Source: a phage. From it: DNA of 27,839 nucleotides. The notes under the pieces were generated by a model. That model had not been told where the DNA came from. It did not search any database and was given only the letters and a program-made list of their open reading frames with translations. Position numbers and translations under genes: made by a program. Shown here piece by piece: positions 18,029-25,121 of the stretch (positions within the stretch are counted from its first letter, which is position 1; each line of letters begins with the position of its first letter). The stretch is taken from NCBI GenBank assembly GCA_023859445.1, contig GCA_023859445.1_4337.1; one strand, 5' to 3'.

Positions 18029-18441
18029 TGGGCTACTTTGAGGACTTAACAAAAGCGTTCGATGTTCCGCTGGTAGCCTTCGGAACCGCCAACGGCATCA
18101 AGGTCGCGCTTGAAAACATCGACGCGCCGACGTCAACCGATACGCCATATCTGGCAAGTTACATGTTACTGGCGGATACCGAGCAAGCAGATTTGTTCTT
18201 CACGGAACAACGCGCGGGTGTTTATCAGGTCGACATTAACTACGCATCGGTGAAAGGTAGCGCGCCAATCAATAAAATGGCAGACTTACTTAACACGGCA
18301 TTCAAAGCAGGTAAGTCATTTTCTCGTAACGACATCTGCGCCGAGGTTCAATCGGTTAGCCTGGGGCCGCTGATTGTAGAAAACGGATGGGCCAAACGAC
18401 CATTGTCAATTAACTTTATTGCATTCACCAAGAGGCTGTGA
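18025..18441 (+). CDS. Tail terminator / tail completion protein (putative), 138 aa
   Basis: ORF track; ATGA overlap; located immediately before the major tail gene. Confidence 0.4.
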   Translation: MMGYFEDLTKAFDVPLVAFGTANGIKVALENIDAPTSTDTPYLASYMLLADTEQADLFFTEQRAGVYQVDINYASVKGSAPINKMADLLNTAFKAGKSFSRNDICAEVQSVSLGPLIVENGWAKRPLSINFIAFTKRL

Positions 18442-18443
18442 AT

Positions 18444-19610
18444 ATGGCTACAACTCCTTTTAAGGGCGCGAATACTGCGCAATTCTATGTGGCAGAAACT
18501 ACCCCTGGCGTAACACCGACTAACCCGGTCTGGTCGCCATTGCGTAACACAGGTGGCGTTCCTGCCATTACCCGCGACACGCTGACCTCCAACGAACTGG
18601 ACGGCAGCCGTGAAACTACATCCATCCGCACCGGTAACAAACAGGTTAGCGGTGAATACGCGATCGAGCTTAGCTCGAAAAGCCAGGATGACTGGCTGGC
18701 TGGTGCTTTAGGCTCTACGTGGCAATCCGGTGTTTCCCTGTCCAGTCTGTCGATTACCGTCGCACCCGCGGGCAAGACGTTCACACGCGCTACCGGCAGT
18801 TTTATCACTGACGGAGTTGGGGTAGGCGACCTGATTGCATTTACCGATTTAACAGGCGATAACGCAAAACCATTTATTGTTACTGCAGTAACGGCTACGG
18901 TTGTTACCGGTGCGGGCATCCAACACACCCTGACCACCGAGACAAAAACTAGTAAGGCTAAAACCGGCGACACGCTGGAAACCGGTAACACGTGTAAGAC
19001 GTTCTCTATCCTTACCTGGTACAAAGGCCAGTGCGGCGGTACTGACGCGTACACGTTAACCAAAGGCGTGGAAGTTTCTGGTTTTACCATCGAACAGGCT
19101 GTTAACGCGATGGTAACTGGCAGCTTCCCATTCATCGGTCGCAGTCAGGAGATTCTCACTACGCCGCCGACCGGTTCCAACTTCTCATCTGTTACTTTTG
19201 GTGATGAGCCGTTCTCTTCGGTTGACGTTTCCGTGTTCGATGGCTCTACGCCGTTGCGTTGTGATAGCCTTACCATCACCAACGACAACAGCGCGTCCGC
19301 ACAGTTCGAACTCGGCAACACTAACGTAGCGTTTGTGGAGCGTAGCCGAGCAGCTAACACCTTCTCCATCTCCGGTAAGCTGTACGACATGGCGATGATT
19401 CAGAAGTTTATCAACGAGCAGCAGGTGGAGATTAACTCTATTCTGGCGGGGGTAAACGGGGCTATGTCTTTCAGTTTGAAACGTGCAGAACTTACGGCGG
19501 TTACACCTGAGATTGGAGGACCTGAGTCAATCACTCAGTCTATTGAAGGCCAGGCTACTGGCAACCAGTACCAGTCGTCTATTGTTATTCAGCGTATCAC
19601 ATACGCATAA
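18444..19610 (+). CDS. Major tail (tube) protein (putative), 389 aa
   Basis: ATG 18444 (SD AAGAGG 8 nt upstream) within track ORF 18438-19610; followed by strong terminator; by synteny. Confidence 0.55.
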   Translation: MATTPFKGANTAQFYVAETTPGVTPTNPVWSPLRNTGGVPAITRDTLTSNELDGSRETTSIRTGNKQVSGEYAIELSSKSQDDWLAGALGSTWQSGVSLSSLSITVAPAGKTFTRATGSFITDGVGVGDLIAFTDLTGDNAKPFIVTAVTATVVTGAGIQHTLTTETKTSKAKTGDTLETGNTCKTFSILTWYKGQCGGTDAYTLTKGVEVSGFTIEQAVNAMVTGSFPFIGRSQEILTTPPTGSNFSSVTFGDEPFSSVDVSVFDGSTPLRCDSLTITNDNSASAQFELGNTNVAFVERSRAANTFSISGKLYDMAMIQKFINEQQVEINSILAGVNGAMSFSLKRAELTAVTPEIGGPESITQSIEGQATGNQYQSSIVIQRITYA

Positions 19611-19614
19611 AACT

Positions 19615-19637
19615 AAGGCCCCGTTTGGGGCCTTTTT
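19615..19637. terminator. Bidirectional intrinsic terminator between convergent major tail gene and minus-strand operon
   Basis: Stem AAGGCCCC/GGGGCCTT, loop GTTT, flanked by AAAACT and TTTTT; stop of minus gene (19639) sits in the T-tract. Confidence 0.75.
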
Positions 19638-19638
19638 C

Positions 19639-20193
19639 TTACAAACCTAATCTTAAAGCAATGCCTATAGCGTTCGATTTAACGTAACCCGGTATGATGT
19701 AGGTGTCATAATCTTTTACACCATCAATATCGTACAGGTAACCGCGGCTGTCCCCTTCAAACGTATGGCCGTCTCTGTGCAAGCGGACGATTCTCACATC
19801 ATGCCACGCGGCAACGATAGGGGCTACTTCGCTGGCGAACCCGCCATCAGACACCACAAAAACTTCGTCGCCGTCGGGCAAGTTTCCGGCAAGATACTTA
19901 CCGAAATAATCATCACCGAATACCGGTTTAATGAATTGCTCGGAAATGGCAATCATGAACTGACGCCGAGACAACCCGTTAAGGAAACCCTCTGGCTTTT
20001 CTTTCCGCGCCCGGTCGTCGTAGCCGTCGAGAAACTCGCGGTAAGCATCCTGGCCTAACGCAGCCATAGCAATATTGAACATCGGATTCTTGAAACTGGC
20101 GACACCCTTCGCAAAGCCCATTTCTACCAGCGCCCTAGCAAGTGTGTCTTTCCCGCAGCCCGCAGGACCATTAAGAATAATTACCTTAGCCAT
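19639..20193 (-). CDS. P-loop nucleotide kinase (dNMP kinase-like; possibly polynucleotide 5'-kinase), 184 aa
   Basis: ORF track; N-terminal Walker A LNGPAGCGKDT, similar in pattern to phage dNMP kinase GKDT P-loops. Confidence 0.65.
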   Translation of the reverse strand: MAKVIILNGPAGCGKDTLARALVEMGFAKGVASFKNPMFNIAMAALGQDAYREFLDGYDDRARKEKPEGFLNGLSRRQFMIAISEQFIKPVFGDDYFGKYLAGNLPDGDEVFVVSDGGFASEVAPIVAAWHDVRIVRLHRDGHTFEGDSRGYLYDIDGVKDYDTYIIPGYVKSNAIGIALRLGL

Positions 20194-20678
20194 TATTTAT
20201 CACTCCCATGTGGTTTTAAGTGTGTAGAGTTCCCGTTACAGTCGTATTCAGTAACTGCGTGAGTGGTTATGCCGAGTTCGCGGAAATGCTTTATTACCGC
20301 TGGAGAGTCGTCGAATGCACACAAGATTCTCTCCGGCCCAATAGCACGCAACACCTCTTCTTTAATTACGATGTCTTTTCTGTTGTCGTGTTTGCTGCGC
20401 ATGATTAACTGATAAAATTCGACGCGGTGGCGCTGCAACCACATTCTGGTTTCTTTTTCCGCGTCATCACTACGGCCTGTTAAGATAATAACGGCATAGC
20501 GACGATTAAGGGCGTTACACAGTTCGATGTTATCTTTAATGGGTGCATCGTCTTTGCACGCCATGTTAAATGGTTTCCACGCCCAGGTTTCGCCGTAGTT
20601 ATCTTTCGGCAGCAGGTGTAAACGATGAGTACCATCTGCCAATGTCCCGTCTAAATCGAAAATCACAATATCTTTCAT
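20193..20678 (-). CDS. HAD-superfamily phosphatase (polynucleotide 3'-phosphatase / nucleotidase-like), 161 aa
   Basis: ORF track; HAD motif I FDLDGTL, motif II ILTGRS, C-terminal FDDS; pattern resembles the T4 Pnk phosphatase domain as recalled from memory. Confidence 0.65.
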   Translation of the reverse strand: MKDIVIFDLDGTLADGTHRLHLLPKDNYGETWAWKPFNMACKDDAPIKDNIELCNALNRRYAVIILTGRSDDAEKETRMWLQRHRVEFYQLIMRSKHDNRKDIVIKEEVLRAIGPERILCAFDDSPAVIKHFRELGITTHAVTEYDCNGNSTHLKPHGSDK

Positions 20679-21805
20679 CCAAGCATCTCCGGTGAAATAG
20701 TTAAACGTGCGACCTCGCCATATTCGGCGCTATAAGTAATTACGTTTGCACTGCGGCCCGACATCCACCCACCGCGGGAGGCATATGCATCTTTAGCCGC
20801 GAGAGTGCGGTGTTGCTCAACAATCATGTTACGGCTTTCTATAATCTTTTGGTGGTGCAGGTGACCCACGTGGGCGTAGCTGTAAACACTCTCGCCGAAC
20901 GCTTTGCGGAACTTGGCGATCATAACCGGTTCGATAGCGTCGAATCGTGCTTTATGCCCATGATGGAAGAACAGCGTCGTTTTGCCGTGTTGCACCATCT
21001 TGTAAACATCCGGCGACGTATCGACGAACACACGCGGCTCATTGTCGTACAGCGTACTAAACATCTCAGCTAACCAAATCATTCCGCTTTCGTCGTGGTT
21101 ACCTTGCACGATAAGCAAGCGAACATTTTTATGTTTAACGAGAGCCATATCAATGACACGGCGGACCATACGAATCATGTAGCGTACAAGTTTCTGATAG
21201 CGGGTGTCAGCGTCAAGAACATGACCACTGGCAGGTGTAACGGCGTCCAGACTATCGAAATGCGCAAGGTCGCCCAGCAGATTAATAACTCCTGTTCCGG
21301 CATCCGGTGCTTTCTGGAACGCTGCGTCGAACCAGCGGGAGAACAGGTCTTCCGCAATCTTCATGTCCCAGTCGTCGCCGCTCTCGTCAGCCCAGGCCAG
21401 CATACCGAGATGGAAATCAGACACAGTGTAAAGGTTGAGTAGCTTGTCGTCTCGTTTGGCGCGAACGGCTTTAACAGGTGCAACTGGTGTAATCTCCGAC
21501 TTCATGCCTTCGATTACGGCTTTCATCAATTCAACCTGACGTTCGGCATCGGTGTCGGTCTTAACCCATTGCAACTTGGTGTTGCCAAACTCATCCACCA
21601 GTGATGACGTTCCTTTAATCTTGTAGCCGTCCGGCACAAGGTGACTAACGTCGCGCCCGTGGCCTACGCCTTTCTTAGCCAGCTTCGCTTTACGGATACG
21701 GATAACGCGGTCAGAGATGCCGTATTTACGGGCGATGTCGATATTCTTCATACCGGCGTTCAATTCTTCCTGTAACTGTTCGTCGGTTATTTTCTTCCTG
21801 GCCAT
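20675..21805 (-). CDS. Calcineurin-like metallophosphoesterase with N-terminal HTH-like domain (376 aa)
   Basis: ORF track; phosphoesterase motifs D-x-H (SDFHLG), GD..D (GDLAHFD), GNHDE, HHGH, GHLHH; N-terminal segment NIDIARKYGISDRVIRIRKAKL looks helix-turn-helix. Confidence 0.7.
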   Translation of the reverse strand: MARKKITDEQLQEELNAGMKNIDIARKYGISDRVIRIRKAKLAKKGVGHGRDVSHLVPDGYKIKGTSSLVDEFGNTKLQWVKTDTDAERQVELMKAVIEGMKSEITPVAPVKAVRAKRDDKLLNLYTVSDFHLGMLAWADESGDDWDMKIAEDLFSRWFDAAFQKAPDAGTGVINLLGDLAHFDSLDAVTPASGHVLDADTRYQKLVRYMIRMVRRVIDMALVKHKNVRLLIVQGNHDESGMIWLAEMFSTLYDNEPRVFVDTSPDVYKMVQHGKTTLFFHHGHKARFDAIEPVMIAKFRKAFGESVYSYAHVGHLHHQKIIESRNMIVEQHRTLAAKDAYASRGGWMSGRSANVITYSAEYGEVARLTISPEMLG

Positions 21806-21849
21806 GCTTATTCCTCGTGTTTAGGATTTGTCTTATTTAACTACAATAG

Positions 21850-22176
21850 CTATTTACTTTCCACTCCCGCCGCCCAAGCTAGAGAGACGATTTGTAAGCG
21901 AGTAGCCACCAATGCGCTGCTGTAGCCTGGTGATTTCATGTCCACAGAACTCATGACAAGGCCTGTTACAAGGTCGAAGCTAACCCCTGCTGCTCCTGCT
22001 GAATACGCGGCCTCACATTCTTTAATAACCGCATTTTTAAACATTTTTTGCGCGGCTACAGGGGCGCTTTCTATTAAACCCGCAGTTATTAATGGGGTTT
22101 CAGAATAAATCTGCTCACAAGTGGAACCTACCGCAGTAAAAGATATGAAACCTAAAGCTAAGATTAATGTACGCAT
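21850..22176 (-). CDS. Small secreted/periplasmic protein with N-terminal signal peptide (108 aa)
   Basis: ORF track; MRTLILALGFISFTAVGSTCEQ looks like a cleavable signal peptide (no canonical lipobox); SD AAGGAA; first gene after conserved promoter copy 4. Confidence 0.5.
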   Translation of the reverse strand: MRTLILALGFISFTAVGSTCEQIYSETPLITAGLIESAPVAAQKMFKNAVIKECEAAYSAGAAGVSFDLVTGLVMSSVDMKSPGYSSALVATRLQIVSLAWAAGVESK

Positions 22177-22217
22177 TTGTTAATTCCTTATTTGAGATAA
22201 CATTGTTGGTGTAAGTG

Positions 22218-22247
22218 AATAGTACCCTATTATATTTGGGTGCGCAA
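22218..22247 (-). promoter_or_regulatory. Conserved phage promoter, copy 4 (TTGCGC-N17-TACTAT, minus strand)
   Basis: -35 complement of 22242-22247, -10 complement of 22219-22224, palindrome AATAGTACCCTATT 22218-22231; drives the minus-strand accessory operon. Confidence 0.5.
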
Positions 22248-22355
22248 GTAGTGTGTTAGAATAATTTTGCACCTAGTGTCGCGCACGAAAAGCGGATGGT
22301 TACCGCCTGGTGCATTTAAGCCAAACCAACAACCTCTTAACCAAAGGATTAAAGA

Positions 22356-22772
22356 ATGAAACTGTCAGACTTCTACTTTGCGTCCAAACACGCAGCAGGA
22401 ACCAAGATGCCGATTCTGTTGCCAGACGGCAGCGATTCCGGCGAATGGCTACAGGTCATGGGGCCAGATTGCGACGACTCCATCGCAGCTGCTAAAGACT
22501 TCATCTCTGCTTATCGCGACATCCTGGACAACCTGAAGCCGCTTGACGCTGAGTGCCGCGAGAAAGGCGACTGGGCTAGATATAACACTGAGTTGAACAG
22601 TGAACTGGCGAAGCTGAATGATGCGCTTGCCGCCGTTGTAGTGATAGGCTGGTCCTTCGACGAGAAGTTCACTAAGAAGGCGCTTGTTAAACTACTCAAG
22701 GAATACAAAGGCTTAGGTGGTGCAGTGGCCCAGCATCACGCAGAGAGCCGCAAAGCGCTGTCGGTAAAGTAG
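22356..22772 (+). CDS. Tail assembly chaperone (putative), 138 aa
   Basis: ORF track; SD AAAGGA; acidic protein immediately upstream of tape measure region; by synteny. Confidence 0.5.
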   Translation: MKLSDFYFASKHAAGTKMPILLPDGSDSGEWLQVMGPDCDDSIAAAKDFISAYRDILDNLKPLDAECREKGDWARYNTELNSELAKLNDALAAVVVIGWSFDEKFTKKALVKLLKEYKGLGGAVAQHHAESRKALSVK

Positions 22773-22804
22773 AGGCGCTCTACGAATATGCGCGGTATCG
22801 CTGG

Positions 22805-23122
22805 GTGATACGTCAGAAGCGCCGGGAGTTCGACTCCATCGCGGACGGTCACAAAGCGGCTCTGACGGCGATGGGATTACCAGTCCCGCCAGAGCCGGAA
22901 GAAGACCCTCCAGAATGCCCGGCTGATATGATGCGAATCATGGACAAATACTACGCATTGAAGTTTGTAAGTCGCAATAACGTACTAATACCGAGGGAGA
23001 TGCTTCAATACCATCACCTGACAGCATATGCTGAACTACACAAGCAACCGTTCACGCTATTGGAGGTGGATTTAATCATGGGCCTTGACGCATTGTTCGA
23101 AGGCCGTAACGAGGATGAATAG
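22805..23122 (+). CDS. Second tail-chaperone-region ORF in the -1 frame (105 aa; independent gene or frameshift extension)
   Basis: ORF track (GTG start, weak SD); its frame is open from 22691 and overlaps the end of the upstream gene by about 80 nt; ends 2 nt before the tape measure start. Confidence 0.4.
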   Translation: MIRQKRREFDSIADGHKAALTAMGLPVPPEPEEDPPECPADMMRIMDKYYALKFVSRNNVLIPREMLQYHHLTAYAELHKQPFTLLEVDLIMGLDALFEGRNEDE

Positions 23123-23123
23123 A

Positions 23124-25121
23124 ATGGCAGATACCGCAAGTTTAATCGTAAAGGTACAGGCTACCGGGGCAGAGCAGGCCGCCAAGCAGCTTGATAGCCT
23201 GAGCAGTTCCGCGGGTAAGGCGGATACCAGTACCAAGAAGATGACTGACACCACATCGGCAGCGGCACCGAAGATGAACGCGCTCAAAGCGTCCATCGGC
23301 AACGCTGGATATCAGGTACAGGACTTCATCGTACAGATTCAGGGCGGGCAATCGGCCCTCACCGCGTTCACCCAGCAGGGTAGCCAGTTAGTATCAGCGT
23401 TTAACCCGATTGCAGGTACTGTGTTGACGCTGGCTACGGTTATCGGCGGCGCGCTATACGCTTCGATGTCCGACGCGAAGGACACCGCAAAGGAACTGGA
23501 AGACGCGACCAAGTTCCTCGATGATGCACTGAACGAAGCAACGCCGGGCGTGTATGAAATGAACGACGCACTGGAGAAGCTCGACGCTATCGGTGCTACC
23601 ACGGCGGAGAAGATGGCATTTCTCAACAAGGCACTGGAAGCTACTGCCGTGCAAGCCAACGCTACCGCTGACAAGATTGTAGAAGCAATCGACAAGGTGA
23701 CTAAGGCGCAGTCCATCTTCCAGAAGCTTACGACCAACCTTGCCGCGTCGCAGATAGCGCAGGGCGGTAATGCTGCTGGGGCGGTGGCGTTCCAGTACGA
23801 AGCAGCAGCAGAGGCCGCTGGACTTACCGCAAAAGAGATGCGTAGTATTGAGGTCGCACAGAAAGCTATCGCCGCTGGAGTTCCGGGCGCTCGTGAAGGA
23901 CTGATTGCGTACCTCGACGGCATCAAAGCTAAGACGCCGGAAGCGCAAATCGAGCTTAACAAGCTGCGTAATGAACTGAACTACCTAGGCGTAGAGGAGA
24001 AGACACGCGCCGCTGAACGTAAGGGCGTAGAACAGGCTGAGAAGACATACGAGAAGGACAAAGCGGACCGGGCGCAGAAGGAAATCGACCGCCAGAATCG
24101 AATCAGTGCTGCCGCCGTGAAACGTGCGTCCGCGCAGGCACGAGCAGAGGCTAAAGCGCAGGAGAGCGCACAGAAAGCCGCTGACCAGTTCATCGCGCAA
24201 CTCGATACCAACACAGGTACCGAGTTAGACAAAATCGATGCTAAAGAGAAGCAGAAGCTAGCTAAGTTGCAGGAATACCATGACAAGCAACTGGTAAGCG
24301 ACGCTGAGTATGAGCAGTCGAAAAGCGACATCATGGCCGAGTTTCAGGCACAGCGGGACGCCCTCTACAACAACGCCGATGTGTATTTACAGAAGTTACA
24401 AGCGCTTGGCGGCACTGAGTACGAGGAAATCCAACGGCAGAATGACGCCAAACTCAAGCAACTGGATGACTTCCTGAAACAGAAGCTGATTAGCGAAGAA
24501 CAGTACGCCAACGCAGTTACCGCGCTGAATGAGCAAAGCAACATTGCGCAGGCTAACGCTACAGCCAACGCGTTCGGAAGCATGGCTGCCGATGCTAAAT
24601 CCGCATTGGGTGAAACGTCCGCCGCGTATAAAGCGTTCGCAATCACCCAGGCGACCATCGCCACCTACACCGCAGCTATAGAGGCGTACAAGTCCACGGC
24701 AGCTATCCCGATTGTTGGCCCGGCGCTAGCCCCGGTTGCCGCCGGTCTGGCAGTTGCCGCAGGTGTGGCTAACATCGCCAAGATTAGCGGTGCGCGTGAG
24801 CAGGGCGGGCAGATGAACGCAGGCGGTAGCTATCTTGTCGGGGAACGTGGTCCAGAGATTATTAAGATGGGTGGTGCCGGTCGTGCAAGTAATGCAAGCC
24901 AGACGCGGGCTGAGCTGTCAGGCAGTGGTAACAGCGGCCCGGCTAACATCAGCATCATTAACAACACTAGTGCACAAATCGGCAACGTATCTACTGAACA
25001 GGATGATGAAGGGCGTCTGCGCATCATTATCTCTGAGCAGGTGGCTTCTGAGCTAATGAACAGCAACAGTCGGATTAGCAAGGCCCGCAAGTCTACGCGA
25101 AATGCACCCGGCTTTAAGTGA
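23124..25121 (+). CDS. Tape measure protein (666 aa)
   Basis: ATG 23124 (SD GAGG 9 nt upstream) within track ORF 23085-25121; long Ala/Gln/Lys-rich helical protein with hydrophobic Gly/Ala-rich segment near the C-terminus. Confidence 0.8.
   Translation: MADTASLIVKVQATGAEQAAKQLDSLSSSAGKADTSTKKMTDTTSAAAPKMNALKASIGNAGYQVQDFIVQIQGGQSALTAFTQQGSQLVSAFNPIAGTVLTLATVIGGALYASMSDAKDTAKELEDATKFLDDALNEATPGVYEMNDALEKLDAIGATTAEKMAFLNKALEATAVQANATADKIVEAIDKVTKAQSIFQKLTTNLAASQIAQGGNAAGAVAFQYEAAAEAAGLTAKEMRSIEVAQKAIAAGVPGAREGLIAYLDGIKAKTPEAQIELNKLRNELNYLGVEEKTRAAERKGVEQAEKTYEKDKADRAQKEIDRQNRISAAAVKRASAQARAEAKAQESAQKAADQFIAQLDTNTGTELDKIDAKEKQKLAKLQEYHDKQLVSDAEYEQSKSDIMAEFQAQRDALYNNADVYLQKLQALGGTEYEEIQRQNDAKLKQLDDFLKQKLISEEQYANAVTALNEQSNIAQANATANAFGSMAADAKSALGETSAAYKAFAITQATIATYTAAIEAYKSTAAIPIVGPALAPVAAGLAVAAGVANIAKISGAREQGGQMNAGGSYLVGERGPEIIKMGGAGRASNASQTRAELSGSGNSGPANISIINNTSAQIGNVSTEQDDEGRLRIIISEQVASELMNSNSRISKARKSTRNAPGFK

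Follow-up and report, generated by a model that had tools for sequence, protein, structure and literature searches.

We analyzed a 27,839-nucleotide (nt) stretch of phage DNA (contig GCA_023859445.1_4337.1 of assembly GCA_023859445.1; this whole stretch is referred to here as the window), focusing on two open reading frames (ORFs), ORF1 and ORF2, that lie just ahead of the gene for the tape measure protein (TMP) and are candidates for a tail assembly chaperone pair comparable to G and T of phage lambda. The original prediction, made from the letters alone, had placed the two ORFs in the 0 and -1 frames, and we verified on the sequence that they occupy frames 0 and 2. Between positions 22200 and 23400, the window is 99.9% identical to Escherichia phage MirsaeidiM_Esher4 (PQ579973), and because this is a phage of Escherichia coli, we take E. 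coli to be the probable host. The PQ579973 record lists the two ORFs as separate hypothetical proteins and starts T at GTG 22805, and further relatives belong to the Guernseyvirinae (Kagunavirus, Jerseyvirus, and phiEap-2). The features of the pair are as follows, with lengths of proteins in amino acids (aa):

22356..22772, plus strand: gene G (ORF1), tail assembly chaperone; 138 aa, frame 0, product ending in ...ALSVK and then UAG
22805-23122, plus strand: ORF2 as called in the original prediction; 105 aa from a GTG start; frame 2, -1 with respect to ORF1
22769..23122, plus strand: T segment; -1 frame, 117 codons plus a stop, with the UAG at 23120
join(22356..22769,22769..23122), plus strand: predicted GT fusion; 255 aa, reading ...ALSVK-VEALYEYARYRWVIRQ..., with the predicted junction peptide ALSVKVEALYEYAR
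22763..22769, plus strand: putative shift site G_GUA_AAG; core A_AAG at 22766-22769, then TAG at 22770-22772
22770..22772, plus strand: UAG stop of G, directly 3' of the shift site; candidate 'shifty stop' stimulator
22691..22765, plus strand: open stretch of the -1 frame 5' of the shift site, with the peptide TTQGIQRLRWCSGPASRREPQSAV
Upstream of GTG 22805: codons for the -1-frame peptide VEALYEYAR

The -1 frame is closed by a TAA at 22688-22690 and open from 22691, and the overlap of the two frames measures 82 nt when the stop codon of ORF1 is counted and 79 nt before that stop, in agreement with the roughly 80 nt proposed at the outset. When the whole of ORF1 was scanned in frame, no X_XXY_YYZ heptamer was found, which bears out the earlier statement that a canonical slippery heptamer is absent from the overlap. 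The same scan returned A_AAG at 22766-22769 as the sole in-frame Z_ZZN tetramer within the overlap, a site that the original prediction had passed over. The window has 125 mechanically called ORFs that reach 60 aa or more, and G is the only one of them that ends in A_AAG plus a stop.

For comparison, we gathered 71 IMG/VR loci by alignment of the G protein and added several GenBank loci; 69 family loci from the Guernseyvirinae and their relatives were analyzable, and 65 unique sequences entered the column statistics. In all 69 loci, G ends in NNA_AAG; the stop behind it is TAG in 45 loci, TAA in 24, and TGA in none, and G is 138 aa long (141 aa in L068). The final heptamer is GGAAAAG in 47 loci, GGTAAAG in 8 (the window included), CGCAAAG in 6, AGCAAAG in 6, AAAAAAG in 2, GTCAAAG in 1, and GGGAAAG in 1, and it is canonical in just 3 of the 69 relatives (AAAAAAG twice and GGGAAAG once). 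While the codon before AAG is variable (GAA, GUA, GCA, UCA, AAA, or GGA, encoding E, V, A, S, K, or G), its third base is invariably A, the Lys codon is invariably AAG and not AAA, and positions -4 to +1 (AAAG TA) are invariant across the unique sequences. Since A_AAG remains fixed even though the P-site residue varies, selection appears to act on the nucleotides and not on the protein. The relatives also narrow down where a shift can take place. In L046 and L049, the -1 frame opens just 7 nt ahead of the stop, and in many other loci it opens 16-25 nt ahead, so any shift is restricted to the last two sense codons. The 79-nt overlap of the window is incidental, and the -1 peptide upstream of its shift site has no counterpart in the relatives; positions 22691..22765 are probably untranslated in the -1 frame.

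A tblastn search with the conceptual fusion returned 497 phage records, 488 of which had at least 80% of the fusion covered at one place, and the fusion aligned as two separate pieces in 60 of 60 sampled rows. A search of a large protein database, which was of low sensitivity, gave 7 matches to G only (149-181 aa) and no in-frame G-T fusion. The arrangement exceeds what chance would produce, because only 1 of 125 window ORFs ends in this way while 69 of 69 related loci do, and because of the two-piece tblastn pattern.

The -1 frame beyond the site carries a clear coding signal. In the related loci, it stays open for 117-122 codons, as far as the start of the tape measure gene, and the T peptide is conserved from the first post-slip codon onward (K-V-x-A-L-Y-x-F/Y-A-x-W/Y-x-F/Y-V-D...). 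Entropy by codon position in this frame is 0.62/0.63/1.32, with the third position at twice the value of positions 1 and 2 from the first post-slip codon, and, as judged from the alignment, the T frame is under purifying selection. A start codon of its own is hard to find. The first ATG, GTG, or TTG in the T frame is codon 108 of 121 in L011 and L012, codon 94 in L031, codon 57 in L040, and codon 50 in L037. In the column of GTG 22805, 59 of 65 sequences encode V by GTC, GTT, GTG, or GTA, and the 12 codons 5' of this GTG are conserved as protein in the -1 frame. The original prediction ascribed a weak Shine-Dalgarno (SD) sequence to GTG 22805, and we found no AGGAGG-like element at 4-17 nt upstream of it. 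The most likely reading of GTG 22805 is therefore that it encodes a valine inside GT.

Profile searches support the identities of both genes. G matches positions 1-138 of phrog_15027 (E 3.7e-51) and also phrog_313, both 'tail assembly chaperone' profiles, and it scores above the gathering threshold for Pfam PF08748 (Phage_TAC_4); its identity to aligned homologues of the same length, every one of which terminates in Lys, is 49-61%. T matches positions 153-258 of phrog_15027, as well as phrog_4557 and Pfam PF23812 (Phage_TAC_18, E 5e-11). Because the 259 positions of phrog_15027 cover ORF1 at 1-138 and ORF2 at 153-258, this profile models a protein of fusion length. Both G and T thus fall into tail assembly chaperone families recognized by Pfam and PHROG. 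The gene order is tail tube (18438-19610), a minus-strand cassette, G, T, and TMP, which places the chaperone pair between the tube and TMP genes, and the G/GT arrangement ahead of a tape measure gene that had been proposed for this locus is thereby upheld by the profile matches.

We conclude, with a probability of about 85%, that ORF1 is G and that ORF2 is no gene of its own but part of T, which programmed -1 frameshifting at G_GUA_AAG joins to G. Under this model, the majority of ribosomes would translate G and terminate at the UAG at 22770, while a small fraction would slip back by one base on G_GUA_AAG (22763-22769), where the single tRNA-Lys of E. coli would re-pair from AAG (22767-22769) to AAA (22766-22768). 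Decoding would then continue with GUA-GAG-GCG... in the -1 frame up to the UAG at 23120 and yield the 255-aa GT, and T would be translated solely as the C-terminal part of GT. We infer both the occurrence of the slip and its efficiency, which is probably a few per cent or less. The slip could happen in the A site (the NNA_AAG 'hexanucleotide'), with tRNA-Lys aided by a wobble-prone tRNA-Val in the P site, or it could happen in the P site, with tRNA-Lys slipping while a slowly decoded stop waits in the A site (a 'shifty stop'). The protein product of the two modes is identical. As in lambda, the tape measure protein would be coated by G and by the G part of GT, the T part would recruit the tail tube protein, and neither G nor GT would stay in the virion.

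What is known of such sites is largely consistent with frameshifting at this position. The P-site codons GUA, GCA, and UCA of the family are presumably read by cmo5U34 tRNAs, which are of the wobble-prone type, and work by Licznar and colleagues from 2003 is said to have linked wobble-prone tRNAs of this kind to higher shifting. No other tetramer comes near A_AAG in its tendency to shift in E. coli, where it reached 5.6% in combination with the IS3 pseudoknot (PMC4066793). AAA and AAG are both decoded in E. coli by one tRNA-Lys (mnm5s2UUU), and its pairing with AAG is weak (PMC5009743). Among natural examples of the NNA_AAG type, IS1222 uses G_CGA_AAG, and A_CGA_AAG is present in cdd of Bacillus subtilis (PMC5009743); the efficiency at such sites depends on the wobble-proneness of the tRNA that reads the 5' codon (PMC5009743; PMC10861913).

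Several points weigh against frameshifting at G_GUA_AAG. In a reporter that lacked a stimulator, A_AAG gave only ~0.15% shifting (PMC4066793), and G_GAA_AAG, which is the commonest heptamer of the family (47 loci), was treated in vitro as 'less slippery' than G_GGA_AAG, owing to a second-position mismatch for tRNA-Glu (PMC6924986). We found no conserved downstream RNA structure, such as a hairpin or pseudoknot 5-9 nt past the site, when RNAalifold was applied to 20 diverse relatives (-0.08 kcal/mol, no covarying pairs), and the fold of the window was no better than that of its shuffles (z = -0.32); the minimum free energy structures of single sequences were unlike among the relatives. Upstream of the site, columns -24 to -8 were variable and, by inspection, held no SD-like stimulator. 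Since no stimulator was found, the efficiency would rest on an unproven effect of the stop codon or may be very low. In the literature, we found no experimental demonstration of a GT fusion for the family of the window phage. Finally, a GTG lies 33 nt past the stop of G in the window, and some independent or re-initiated T could be made from it.

This last point leads to an alternative that we regard as unlikely, in which ORF2 is translated alone from GTG 22805, either de novo or by re-initiation after the G stop, to give a free 105-aa protein and no fusion. PQ579973 annotates exactly this coding sequence, many related records also list a separate 'hypothetical protein', and the announcement of the Shashou genome reports no canonical slippery sequence (PMC6776780). 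However, the GTG has no SD, it aligns with a conserved internal Val that is mostly GTC, GTT, or GTA in relatives, and the 12 codons ahead of it are conserved as protein. In addition, the annotated starts of the relatives lie at differing, non-homologous positions, L011 and L012 offer no possible start for 107 codons, and independent translation would leave the invariance of A_AAG plus the stop unexplained. The original prediction had left the choice between a non-canonical shift and independent translation; the comparative evidence and the position of A_AAG directly at the stop speak for the former, and the latter finds little in these data to sustain it. It is also quite improbable that the shift is real but takes place elsewhere in the 79-nt overlap of the window, at a site not common to the relatives. 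Although an overlap of this unusual length formally allows other positions, A_AAG is its only in-frame motif of the Z_ZZN or X_XXY_YYZ kind, the relatives have no counterpart of the -1 peptide encoded ahead of it, and they limit the shift to the last two codons.

Two explanations remain to be weighed. If RNA polymerase dropped or added a base in the A run, the resulting protein would be identical to that from a ribosomal shift, A runs are the usual substrate of such slippage, and in two relatives the run reaches six A's ahead of the G (AAAAAAG). Yet the A run is just three in the window (GGTAAAG) and four in most relatives, while appreciable slippage by RNA polymerase needs 7-9 or more residues, far above the run of the window, and a conserved A_AAG in a fixed frame beside a stop matters to ribosomes and not to RNA polymerase; we therefore consider transcriptional slippage very improbable. 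We find it barely credible that ORF2 is a decaying remnant, or that an indel from sequencing or assembly has split one 255-aa gene. A single-base homopolymer indel would look alike in one genome, but the two-frame layout occurs in 497 phage records (60 of 60 sampled rows) and in 69 loci inspected base by base, the database search gave proteins of the size of G only (149-181 aa) and no in-frame fusion, and the T frame shows purifying selection and a Pfam domain. Programmed -1 frameshifting at G_GUA_AAG is the reading that we retain.

We also tried and rejected a shift into the +1 frame, which shows no conservation and in most loci stays open for just 4-51 codons. Two distant G homologues, L073 (G stop at ~2023) and L075 (G stop at ~1803), share 26-35% identity and do not have A_AAG plus a stop; their G ends are GGCAGCG-TGA and CGGTGGT-TAG. 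Past the G stop of L073, 126 codons are open in the +1 frame rather than in the -1 frame, a hint that recoding there may go in another direction or that the gene is separate.

Two candidate stimulators downstream of the site were rejected. A hairpin in the window, GUAGAG-GCG-CUCUAC, begins inside the slip site and depends on a C at +10 that is unique to the window phage. The element GCGCUGU, at +5 to +11 counted from the first base of the stop, is near-invariant in the 65 unique sequences, including at synonymous Ala/Leu positions, and takes the form GCGCUCU at 22775-22781 in the window; it has no conserved pairing partner and varies outside the IMG/VR set, reading GCGUUG in the loci of Jerseyvirus and Shashou and GCCCUG in that of Shewanella phage 3/49. 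Apart from this element, the stop codon was the sole flanking feature that we called conserved.

The identity and context of this stop are constrained. Of 45 crude ORFs in the window, 22 end in TGA, more than in any other stop, yet TGA ends G in 0 of 69 loci. The base after the G stop is A in 51 and C in 14 of the 65 unique sequences, as raw counts over loci that share ancestry. Stops followed by A or C are, according to what Poole and colleagues are said to have described in 1995, weaker contexts for termination. The fixation of the stop as UAG or UAA with A or C behind it suggests a 'shifty stop' contribution. It is conceivable, though we lean against it, that a stop read by RF1 (UAG or UAA, never UGA, then A or C) after A_AAG acts as the stimulator, replacing a second slippery codon and an RNA structure, with the slip taking place in the P site. 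A slow A site generally carries more weight for +1 than for -1 shifting (PMC5009743). If the stop were the stimulator, the ratio of GT to G would be set by, and responsive to, release-factor activity in the infected cell. To our knowledge, it would be unusual for a structural gene of a phage to have a natural -1 'shifty stop' that is conserved.

The genes that surround the chaperone pair are as follows:

18438..19610, plus strand: tail tube protein gene; 390 aa, phrog_290, 94% identity to the Shashou protein
19639-22176, minus strand: cassette of four genes between the tail tube gene and G
23115..25121, plus strand: tape measure protein gene; phrog_1538 (E 6e-103), also annotated in PQ579973
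25145-25903, minus strand: 252-aa ORF between the TMP gene and the next tail gene; T5orf172/MUG113, CapR, and zinc-ribbon matches

The Shashou homologue of the tube protein carries the annotation 'tail tube protein' and a note of HHpred similarity to T5 5NGJ. The start of TMP is ambiguous, since either the ATG at 23115, which gives an 8-nt overlap with the T stop and a geometry as in the relatives, or the ATG at 23124, which is the GenBank call and has a better-spaced GAGGA ahead of it, could be used. TMP is 665-678 aa in the window and ~778 aa in Shashou. The tail tube protein shares 94% identity with its counterpart in the Kagunavirus Shashou, while G reaches only 49-61% with any relative found and the GT fusion ~50% with Kagunavirus; the region 18438-25121 appears mosaic, as if the G/GT/TMP module had been exchanged as a unit. 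Searches by sequence found no relatives with solved structures.

The tube gene and G are kept apart by 2.7 kb of minus-strand cassette. Of its four genes, one encodes a 184-aa P-loop kinase-like protein with a weak AAA_18 match and another a PNKP-type HAD phosphatase of 161 aa (PF25109, E 7e-20). The products of the other two are a calcineurin-like metallophosphoesterase of 376 aa and a 108-aa protein with 45% identity to a Kagunavirus protein at the same position. The gene at the position of the 108-aa protein is labeled 'superinfection immunity protein' in the records of fPoEco01, EnJE1, and Psm147, and the kinase and phosphatase genes are missing from the phiEap-2, Kagunavirus, and Shashou loci. 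The kinase and phosphatase might form a split polynucleotide kinase-phosphatase for nucleic-acid end repair. Downstream of TMP, the 252-aa ORF looks like an inserted gene, because in Shashou the minor tail protein gene directly follows the tape measure gene, and it is possibly mobile (GIY-YIG-like or homing-type).

Previous annotations of the pair differ among related phages. In MT711526 (Escherichia phage vB_EcoS_fPoEco01, a Kagunavirus) and KJ018214 (Shewanella phage 3/49), the homologous pair is annotated as a joined 'frameshift product', and G ends in GGAAAAG-TAG and AAAAAAG-TAG, respectively. Among the record annotations that we examined, only these two carry the join, whereas PQ579973 has two genes, and we found no published analysis of the site behind the MT711526 and KJ018214 annotations in the literature. 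The Shashou genome announcement was the only literature on frameshifting in this family that we found, and it states 'no canonical slippery sequence' (PMC6776780); the Shashou locus nonetheless carries G_GAA_AAG_UAG. Since both the G/GT chaperone system and the A_AAG type of site are already known, the window pair adds one case with a slightly unusual slip site. For annotation, the matter extends to ~500 deposited Guernseyvirinae-like genomes, as most of the annotations examined give a 'tail assembly chaperone' and a 'hypothetical protein' with arbitrary starts. The precise join for such genomes would be one base back after the AAG that precedes the stop. In addition, evolution within the family has varied the P-site codon and kept both the A-site A_AAG and the stop constant, and this natural series could be used to test how much a -1 shift needs re-pairing in the P site and whether a stop codon serves as a stimulator.

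The arrangement can be compared with three groups of known systems. In lambda, G and GT arise through a -1 frameshift at a G:GT ratio of ~30:1 (Levin, Hendrix and Casjens 1993; Xu, Hendrix and Duda 2004, 2013, 2014; summarized in PMC5009743). As in lambda, the window has an overlapping ORF pair just ahead of the tape measure gene, with the second ORF in the -1 frame and without a start of its own, and a shift would occur near the end of G at an A-site AAG read by tRNA-Lys, with low-level expression of the fusion expected. The likeness extends to stimulatory RNA structure, none of which was found at the window site. Lambda, on the other hand, has the canonical G_GGA_AAG some codons before the G stop, whereas the window site abuts the stop and its P-site codon GUA is unable to re-pair properly. 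In contrast to lambda, the window also has its tube gene separated from G by the 2.7-kb minus-strand cassette, and its G and T were assigned to Phage_TAC_4 and Phage_TAC_18 through Pfam families rather than through comparison with lambda gpG and gpT.

With IS1222, cdd of B. subtilis, and the IS3 constructs, the window site shares the slip of a single tRNA from AAG to AAA and a P-site codon that ends in A and cannot re-pair. The IS3 constructs, however, pair A_AAG with a pseudoknot, while the window site has no detectable stimulator and is directly followed by a stop. In this last respect it resembles 'shifty stop' systems, since a stop immediately 3' of the slippery codon would provide a slow A-site step during which the peptidyl-tRNA could re-pair. 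The classic natural cases of a 'shifty stop' are +1 (prfB at CUU_UGA; antizyme; Weiss et al. 1987), unlike the -1 shift predicted for the window. Altogether, of the classical hallmarks of the lambda G/GT system, the canonical heptamer is absent from the window pair and the others that can be examined in silico are present; the window pair is probably its functional equivalent.

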